In this document: positions 21,029-21,973 of the stretch, in pieces
Position numbering within the stretch: the first letter of the stretch is position 1
Layout: the number at the start of each line of letters is the position of its first letter
Sequence record: NC_001416.1
DNA from: Escherichia phage Lambda
Direction: 5' to 3' (one strand)
DNA: 48,502 nucleotides
Translations under genes and position numbers: made by a program
The notes under the pieces: generated by a model
What the model was told of the DNA's origin: nothing
Seen by the model: the letters and a program-made list of their open reading frames with translations, nothing else
The model's database searches: none

Positions 21029-21973
21029 ATGACTAACGCGCTTGCGGGTAAACAACCGAAGAATGCGACACTGACGGCGCTGGCAGGGCTTTCCACGGCG
21101 AAAAATAAATTACCGTATTTTGCGGAAAATGATGCCGCCAGCCTGACTGAACTGACTCAGGTTGGCAGGGATATTCTGGCAAAAAATTCCGTTGCAGATG
21201 TTCTTGAATACCTTGGGGCCGGTGAGAATTCGGCCTTTCCGGCAGGTGCGCCGATCCCGTGGCCATCAGATATCGTTCCGTCTGGCTACGTCCTGATGCA
21301 GGGGCAGGCGTTTGACAAATCAGCCTACCCAAAACTTGCTGTCGCGTATCCATCGGGTGTGCTTCCTGATATGCGAGGCTGGACAATCAAGGGGAAACCC
21401 GCCAGCGGTCGTGCTGTATTGTCTCAGGAACAGGATGGAATTAAGTCGCACACCCACAGTGCCAGTGCATCCGGTACGGATTTGGGGACGAAAACCACAT
21501 CGTCGTTTGATTACGGGACGAAAACAACAGGCAGTTTCGATTACGGCACCAAATCGACGAATAACACGGGGGCTCATGCTCACAGTCTGAGCGGTTCAAC
21601 AGGGGCCGCGGGTGCTCATGCCCACACAAGTGGTTTAAGGATGAACAGTTCTGGCTGGAGTCAGTATGGAACAGCAACCATTACAGGAAGTTTATCCACA
21701 GTTAAAGGAACCAGCACACAGGGTATTGCTTATTTATCGAAAACGGACAGTCAGGGCAGCCACAGTCACTCATTGTCCGGTACAGCCGTGAGTGCCGGTG
21801 CACATGCGCATACAGTTGGTATTGGTGCGCACCAGCATCCGGTTGTTATCGGTGCTCATGCCCATTCTTTCAGTATTGGTTCACACGGACACACCATCAC
21901 CGTTAACGCTGCGGGTAACGCGGAAAACACCGTCAAAAACATTGCATTTAACTATATTGTGAGGCTTGCATAA
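21029..21973 (+). pseudogene. stf: Side tail fibre, C-terminal part (orf-314); reading frame is open from 20819, continuing stf after a 1-bp frameshift
   Basis: ORF track 21029..21973; I translated this frame back to a TGA at 20816-20818, giving tail-fibre-like sequence overlapping the orf-401 end. Confidence 0.8.

Follow-up and report, generated by a model that had tools for sequence, protein, structure and literature searches.

What is encoded by a conspicuously repetitive, histidine-rich stretch in the 3' part of stf, the side tail fibre gene of phage lambda, which is interrupted upstream of the repeats? The window analysed here is the whole 48,502-nucleotide genome of Escherichia phage Lambda (NC_001416.1). 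In a first-pass annotation, made from the letters alone, the stretch had been described as a repetitive fibre shaft region, possibly metal-binding or beta-helical, that is prone to recombination or slippage. The features discussed below are listed in Table 1.

The frameshifted stf gene and its surroundings

Positions 21029 to 21973 were 100% identical, with equal coordinates, to several lambda records, in which they are annotated as tail fibre or side tail fibre protein; the initial assignment to stf was thus correct. The region under study is orf314, the 3' part of the frameshifted stf, and its product of 314 amino acids matched a tail fiber family in PHROGs (phrog_295, E = 2.4e-120). The 5' part of the gene, orf401, was recognized by the Pfam families phage_tail_N (E = 2.7e-75) and Phage_fiber_2 (E = 8.7e-20). 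In LC730321, a lambda record of 48,503 bp, an extra C follows position 20832 and stf is a single ORF of 787 codons. In the window, the open frame that contains orf314 begins at 20819, inside the 3' end of orf401. The wording used in the HK630 annotation is 'missing C relative to Ur-lambda', and the frameshifted stf of laboratory 'PaPa' lambda is documented in the literature (PMC12617516, PMC9659904). Judged from its sequence, the stf gene in the window is this frameshifted PaPa form, and orf314 is its intact-looking, disconnected 3' part. Since the missing C splits stf, the tip would not be assembled into fibres in this genome. Ur-lambda Stf (Hendrix & Duda 1992; cryo-EM/ET and AlphaFold3 model, PMC12617516) is the product of the same gene, of which orf314 is the 3' part; there the gene is intact, whereas with the genome analysed here no side fibres are made.

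Apart from three nucleotide substitutions, orf314 was identical to the corresponding part of the intact stf in LC730321. The differences are AA to GT at 21704-21705 and G to A at 21714, corresponding to K226V and S229N of orf314, and both exchanges fall inside the variable head between the histidine arms, the putative receptor-contact region. A further sequence 100% identical to lambda orf314 was found in MW057783.1 (20949-21893), a 48,361-bp record named 'Campylobacter phage CJLB-4'; the record is apparently mislabelled or stems from contamination with lambda.

The Rfam search identified no RNA family within 21029-21973. Inside tfa, a match to IS009 (RF02111) was obtained at 22316-22514 on the plus strand, covering the full model length with 217.7 bits (gathering score 117); this family may have been built from E. 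coli prophage tfa-like sequence. Across the Ala/Ser-rich shaft of orf401 (19873-20767), long ORFs of 200 to 283 amino acids occur in the alternative frames as well as on the opposite strand. With a composition as biased and repetitive as this, such ORFs are to be expected, and they provide no evidence of genes. Two minus-strand ORFs overlapping orf314 (21320-21583 and 21441-21677) were without support as genes as well.

Table 1. Features of the stf region (positions in the window; residue numbers are those of the orf314 product unless T4 is named)
Feature	Position	Strand	Description	Basis
orf401	19650-20855	+	5' part of stf; N-terminal domain for attachment to the virion, plus Ala/Ser-rich shaft	ORF list, Pfam
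stf frameshift site	20833-20835	+	C-run one C short compared to intact lambda stf; splits orf401 and orf314	LC730321 alignment
orf314	21029-21973	+	3' part of stf; putative receptor-binding tip (collar, needle, head)	ORF list, 2XGF homology, PHROGs
Collar domain	21245-21388	+	aa 73-120	Pfam PF07484, 43.4 bits (cut-off 24)
HxH motif 1	21449-21457	+	KSHTH, H141/H143; base of outgoing arm	Aligns with T4 gp37 H883/H885
Two full 30-bp units	21485-21544	+	10 aa each; predicted His-free rungs of outgoing arm	TRF, unit comparison
Partial third unit	21545-21565	+	GTKSTNN; leads into HxH motif 2	12/30 nt identical to unit 2
Distal outgoing arm	21575-21625	+	HxH motifs 2 and 3, 14 aa apart; holds the Pfam Phage_fiber 14-aa repeat	
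HxH motif 2	21575-21583	+	GAHAH, H183/H185	Aligns with T4 H915/H917
HxH motif 3	21617-21625	+	GAHAH, H197/H199	Aligns with T4 H929/H931
Head	21626-21754	+	aa 200-242 (about 43 aa), variable, non-repetitive; putative receptor-contact region	Alignment divergence
Returning arm	21755-21904	+	HxH motifs 4 to 8, starting at H245, H259, H268, H277 and H286; includes the 27-bp array (GxHxHxhxh)	
HxH motif 4	21761-21769	+	GSHSH	
HxH motif 5	21803-21811	+	GAHAH	
HxH motif 6	21830-21838	+	GAHQH	
HxH motif 7	21857-21865	+	GAHAH	
HxH motif 8	21884-21892	+	GSHGH	
C-terminal tail	21905-21973	+	Conserved; includes the stop codon	Columns invariant or nearly so in 27 homologues
tfa	21973-22557	+	Tail-fibre assembly chaperone, directly 3' of orf314	Pfam Caudo_TAP, E = 2.8e-43

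Histidine motifs, repeat arrays and homology to the tip of T4 gp37

Two repeat arrays were detected by TRF, a 30-bp array at 21485-21553 (2.3 copies, 80% matches, score 80) and a 27-bp array at 21796-21865 (2.6 copies, score 70), both above the default score threshold of 50. The latter was extended by a repeat search to four in-register copies of a 27-bp His unit, with pairwise identities of 48 to 74%. When the outgoing His arm was aligned with the returning one, the similarity exceeded that of shuffled sequences with z = 8.2. The internal repetition postulated earlier is therefore significant, and the translation of 21029-21970 agrees with the tandem coding repeats and GAHAH-type motifs described. 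Three tandem 30-bp units had been claimed, of which two are full copies. These (21485-21514 and 21515-21544) share 22 of 30 nucleotides (73%) and 9 of 10 amino acids; of the eight mismatched positions, five belong to synonymous codon changes, and uninterrupted identity extends over 11 nt at most. The third shares only the residues G-T-K-x-T with the second and is a partial copy.

The HxH motifs named in the first-pass annotation were all present, but its list was incomplete: orf314 encodes eight of them, containing all 16 histidines of the product, and KSHTH is located upstream of the point where the repeats had been taken to begin. Residue shuffles of orf314 contained 0.76 ± 0.83 HxH motifs (maximum 6), and none out of 100,000 reached eight. 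The His columns of the motifs were invariant in 27 aligned homologues. The two repeat-bearing arms are separated by the head, a non-repetitive stretch unnoticed earlier, which is the most divergent block in the homologue alignments. The Pfam family Phage_fiber (PF03335) matched orf314 in three stretches (36.5 bits, cut-off 20; best at residues 178-191), but it covers the 14-aa HxH unit only and not the 10-aa His-free or the 9-aa units of lambda.

In a phmmer search against the PDB, residues 58-314 of orf314 matched residues 17-242 of 2XGF chain A, the crystallised tip of T4 gp37 (residues 785-1026), with E = 3.7e-73. The needle and head part alone gave E = 2.5e-30, and no solved structure other than 2XGF matched it in the PDB sequence search. 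Both tips are collinear over collar, needle, head and C-terminal tail. Each of the HxH motifs of T4, starting at residues 883, 915, 929, 966, 980, 989 and 998, was aligned with an HxH of lambda, so that all seven iron-coordinating motifs are conserved. Relative to T4, the lambda tip contains exactly two insertions, 10 amino acids in the outgoing arm and 9 amino acids comprising an HxH unit in the returning arm. These represent one additional GTKTTxSFDY unit, of which T4 has one, and one additional GxHxH unit, resulting in eight instead of seven predicted metal sites and in a needle longer by one rung. The sequence of the head differs between the two phages. The abstract of the 2XGF report of Bartual et al. 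2010 is said to mention a high degree of homology to the tip of the lambda side fibre.

The tip of gp37 consists of a collar, a needle and a broader head bearing the receptor-binding residues (PMC6957217, PMC9659904). The needle is six-stranded and antiparallel, with three outgoing and three returning strands (PMC9659904), and contains seven iron atoms, the coordinating histidines of which are essential for function; H929 and H931 are named among these essential iron ligands (PMC6957217). The D10 collar includes residues 1010-1026 (PMC6957217), the C-terminal part of gp37 returning to the collar, and the counterpart of this part in lambda is the conserved C-terminal tail. In gp37 and other fibres, three symmetry-related HxH copies form an octahedral Fe(II) site, for which a role in folding or registration has been proposed (PMC6116203). 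Ur-lambda Stf resembles the tip of gp37 and, like gp37, uses OmpC as receptor (PMC12617516). According to Montag et al. 1989, as cited in PMC12617516 and PMC9659904, the tip of gp37 can be replaced functionally by that of lambda. A fibre-assembly chaperone gene is located directly downstream in both phages. Lambda Tfa (Caudo_TAP) belongs to a different family than T4 gp38, although the two are reported to be interchangeable (PMC9659904). In contrast to gp37, which forms part of a long tail fibre, the lambda tip belongs to a siphovirus side fibre, the gene of which is frameshifted in this genome. The HxH motifs of lambda have already been noted in the literature (PMC11705849).

On this basis, the orf314 region very probably encodes the distal receptor-binding tip of the side tail fibre Stf, a needle of the gp37 type with metal-binding HxH motifs. 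As predicted from the homology, a collar is followed by a needle of six strands and a variable head, and the region is not a beta-helical shaft. The latter, one of the possibilities raised at first, does not agree with two repeat types arranged in two arms, with mirror-image spacing round a variable head, nor with the antiparallel needle of the homologue. The suggestion of metal binding was strongly supported by the homology, as the lambda motifs match the seven iron-coordinating HxH of gp37 one for one (PMC6957217, PMC6116203). An AlphaFold2 monomer model of residues 58-314, based on a 27-sequence alignment, had a mean pLDDT of 43 and a pTM of 0.17; such low values are to be expected when an obligate trimer with interdigitated chains and bound metal is modelled as a single chain.

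Transferred from T4, the structure would be formed by three chains that run out from the collar, build a small, variable, receptor-contacting head and run back, giving the six-stranded antiparallel needle. Each HxH would contribute two histidines from each of the three chains, and the six side chains would surround one buried Fe(II) octahedrally on the trimer axis. For the eight motifs of lambda, eight ions are predicted compared to seven in gp37, and these ions probably serve as registration points and as rivets that stabilise the thin needle. The metal bound at the lambda sites in vivo could differ from iron; crystals of T4 gp12 contained Zn (PMC6116203). The same design, an HxH repeated three times round a three-fold axis to give an octahedral metal site, is found in the R1/R2 pyocin fibre shaft, P2 gpV, the phi92 spikes and T4 gp12 (PMC6116203). 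The pyocin fibre shaft harbors one HxH iron, in contrast to the eight tandem sites predicted for lambda (PMC6116203). PDB sequence searches with the lambda tip gave no match to the pyocin fibre, P2 gpV, phi92 or T4 gp12 entries.

Matched arms among homologous modules

Homologues were collected in a search of 5.8 billion proteins and a search of 1.84 billion representatives; 4,078 of the candidates scored had E ≤ 1e-10, and 135 distinct complete modules formed the sample for the comparison of the arms. For this purpose, the arms were split at the largest HxH gap with the first gap excluded, which can exceed the length of the head. In 134 of the 135 modules the HxH spacings were mirror-symmetric about the divergent head, so that the out-and-back topology is visible at the level of the sequence. 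The outgoing gaps follow the pattern 22 + 10k, then m gaps of about 14 residues, and the returning gaps the pattern of m gaps of about 14, then k + 1 gaps of 9. The number of units, which varied among the homologues, ranged from 0 to 3 for k and from 0 to 2 for m. Lambda has outgoing gaps of [42, 14] and returning gaps of [14, 9, 9, 9], compared to [32, 14] and [14, 9, 9] in T4. Other classes are [32] with [9, 9], [42] with [9, 9, 9], [52] with [9, 9, 9, 9] and [22, 14, 14] with [14, 14, 9].

The outgoing span, ranging from 32 to 56 residues, always exceeded the returning span (18 to 41 residues) by 13 to 16 residues (r = 0.994). The 134 modules are phylogenetically related and the independent evidence amounts to eight length classes; upon random re-pairing of these eight classes, the observed tightness was obtained in 1.4e-4 of the trials. 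The length of the head varied from 29 to 67 amino acids within one arm class. Only P0122 deviated; it consists of two modules, the last of which obeys the rule.

Several of the retrieved sequences have an unusual architecture. Two collar/needle modules are present in one ORF in P0122, a terminase GpA domain (PF05876) precedes the needle repeats in P0078 (480 contigs) and P0008, and P0004 is a frameshifted lambda tip. These are probably rearranged prophage remnants or artefacts of gene calling.

From length covariation, not from coordinates, it was inferred that the 30-bp array of lambda belongs to the outgoing strand of a needle and the 27-bp array to the returning strand paired with it. On the outgoing strand, every His-free 10-aa unit (GTKTTxSFDY) would be a rung, with one 9-aa GxHxHxhxh unit on the returning strand as its partner, while the 14-aa HxH-SLSGTxxSAG units would occur on both strands. 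The needle length would then be set by paired unit numbers. The spacing data make it likely that the needle is a strictly modular ladder, in which paired units determine both the length and the number of buried metal ions, 2m + k + 4.

Probable exchange between phages and competing readings

A comparison with DNA of the lambdoid phage PhiR29_1 revealed a mosaic. Identity was 87% up to 21523, one 30-bp unit was absent between 21523 and 21551, and 85% identity was found over 21551-21598. No similarity was detectable over the head (21599-21766); it resumed with 77% at 21767-21828 and with 91% from 21824 onward through tfa. In a tblastn search, the tip module was detected in 536 phage records of several families, the gp37-type tip being found in lambdoid, T-even, P2-like and Felixounavirus phages and the T4-type tip in lambdoid phages as well. 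In the T-even Mosigvirus LF82-41 (PV660463.1, 1-3617), gp37 ends in a lambda-type tip with 80% amino acid identity, eight HxH motifs and both extra units, and the tip gene is followed by a gene annotated as 'tail fiber assembly protein' and not by a gp38-type adhesin gene. This distribution suggests that a tip-plus-chaperone cassette has been exchanged horizontally between myoviruses and lambdoid siphoviruses. The conserved arm DNA flanking the variable head might serve as the homologous sequence through which phages exchange cassettes of head or needle, and the mosaic DNA fits such an exchange.

These data could be taken to mean that the repeats are mainly substrates for recombination or slippage, 'His boxes' forming an evolvability device that changes copy number and adhesin specificity, and not primarily structural elements. 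The different unit numbers among homologues, the position of the PhiR29_1 breakpoints inside the 30-bp array and round the divergent head, and the occurrence of the same tip type in four groups of phages are in line with this reading. Tetart et al. reportedly found the gp37 duplications flanked by GxHxH 'His boxes' and put forward the idea of cassette exchange for T-even phages. The expansion of the T4 host range by duplications in gp37 is ascribed to Tetart et al. 1996 in PMC6957217. However, the histidines are invariant in homologues and essential in T4 (PMC6957217), and the 30-bp units have been kept as protein but have diverged as DNA, which argues for selection on structure and makes them a poor substrate for slippage. 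Moreover, no change in copy number was observed among 14 records at least 99.7% identical over the full 945 bp, each giving one unbroken alignment of 945 bases. Owing to the strict matching of the arms, one-sided changes such as slippage at a single site would usually be deleterious. A predominantly recombinational role is thus rather unlikely. Of the two tendencies mentioned in the first-pass annotation, recombination was borne out on evolutionary time scales by the mosaic DNA and the variation in unit number, while the available sequences do not support frequent slippage.

Iron bound by the HxH motifs has also been discussed as a bait for siderophore receptors ('Ferrojan/Trojan horse') in HxH-bearing fibres, lambda being named among them (PMC11705849), and the Zn in gp12 would allow for another metal with a function in catalysis or sensing. 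Such a role is highly improbable, since the equivalent iron in R-pyocin fibres is buried and not exposed (PMC6116203), gp37 and Ur-lambda Stf use OmpC and LPS as receptors and not siderophore transporters (PMC6957217, PMC12617516), and the receptor-contact residues map to the tip of the head and not to the histidines (PMC6957217). Finally, repetition by chance or by low-complexity composition might be considered for a non-functional remnant ORF, as stf is frameshifted and the region consequently not under selection in laboratory lambda, and the third 30-bp unit resembles the other two only weakly. This explanation has a negligible probability: the ORF is intact and, except for the three substitutions, the same as in lambda with a whole stf, and both TRF scores exceed the threshold. 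The homology to 2XGF, the shuffles and the invariance of the motifs throughout the homologues rule it out. A gp37-type needle with metal sites thus remains the preferred reading of orf314.

The feature is itself known and belongs to a known family that has been characterised structurally. The homology of the lambda stf and T4 gp37 tips, the iron sites formed by HxH motifs and the frameshift in stf of laboratory lambda are all textbook knowledge or published. What is added here is a descriptive rule for the matching of the arms and the prediction of eight metal sites. An annotation should describe the region as a receptor-binding tip whose head can be swapped and for which eight metal sites are predicted, and not as a generic repetitive shaft. 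If the ladder holds true, every 14-aa HxH unit has to be matched by another 14-aa unit and every 10-aa unit by one of 9 aa. Natural needles would then occur in discrete sizes with 5 to 8 ions, lambda having 8 and T4 7, and their length would change via exchange of the whole distal cassette or via two coupled indels. For the design of chimeric fibres, the arm-matching rule indicates which indels should be tolerated: any gain or loss of a unit in one arm would have to be accompanied by that of its partner in the other, which would provide a simple rule for engineering fibre length.
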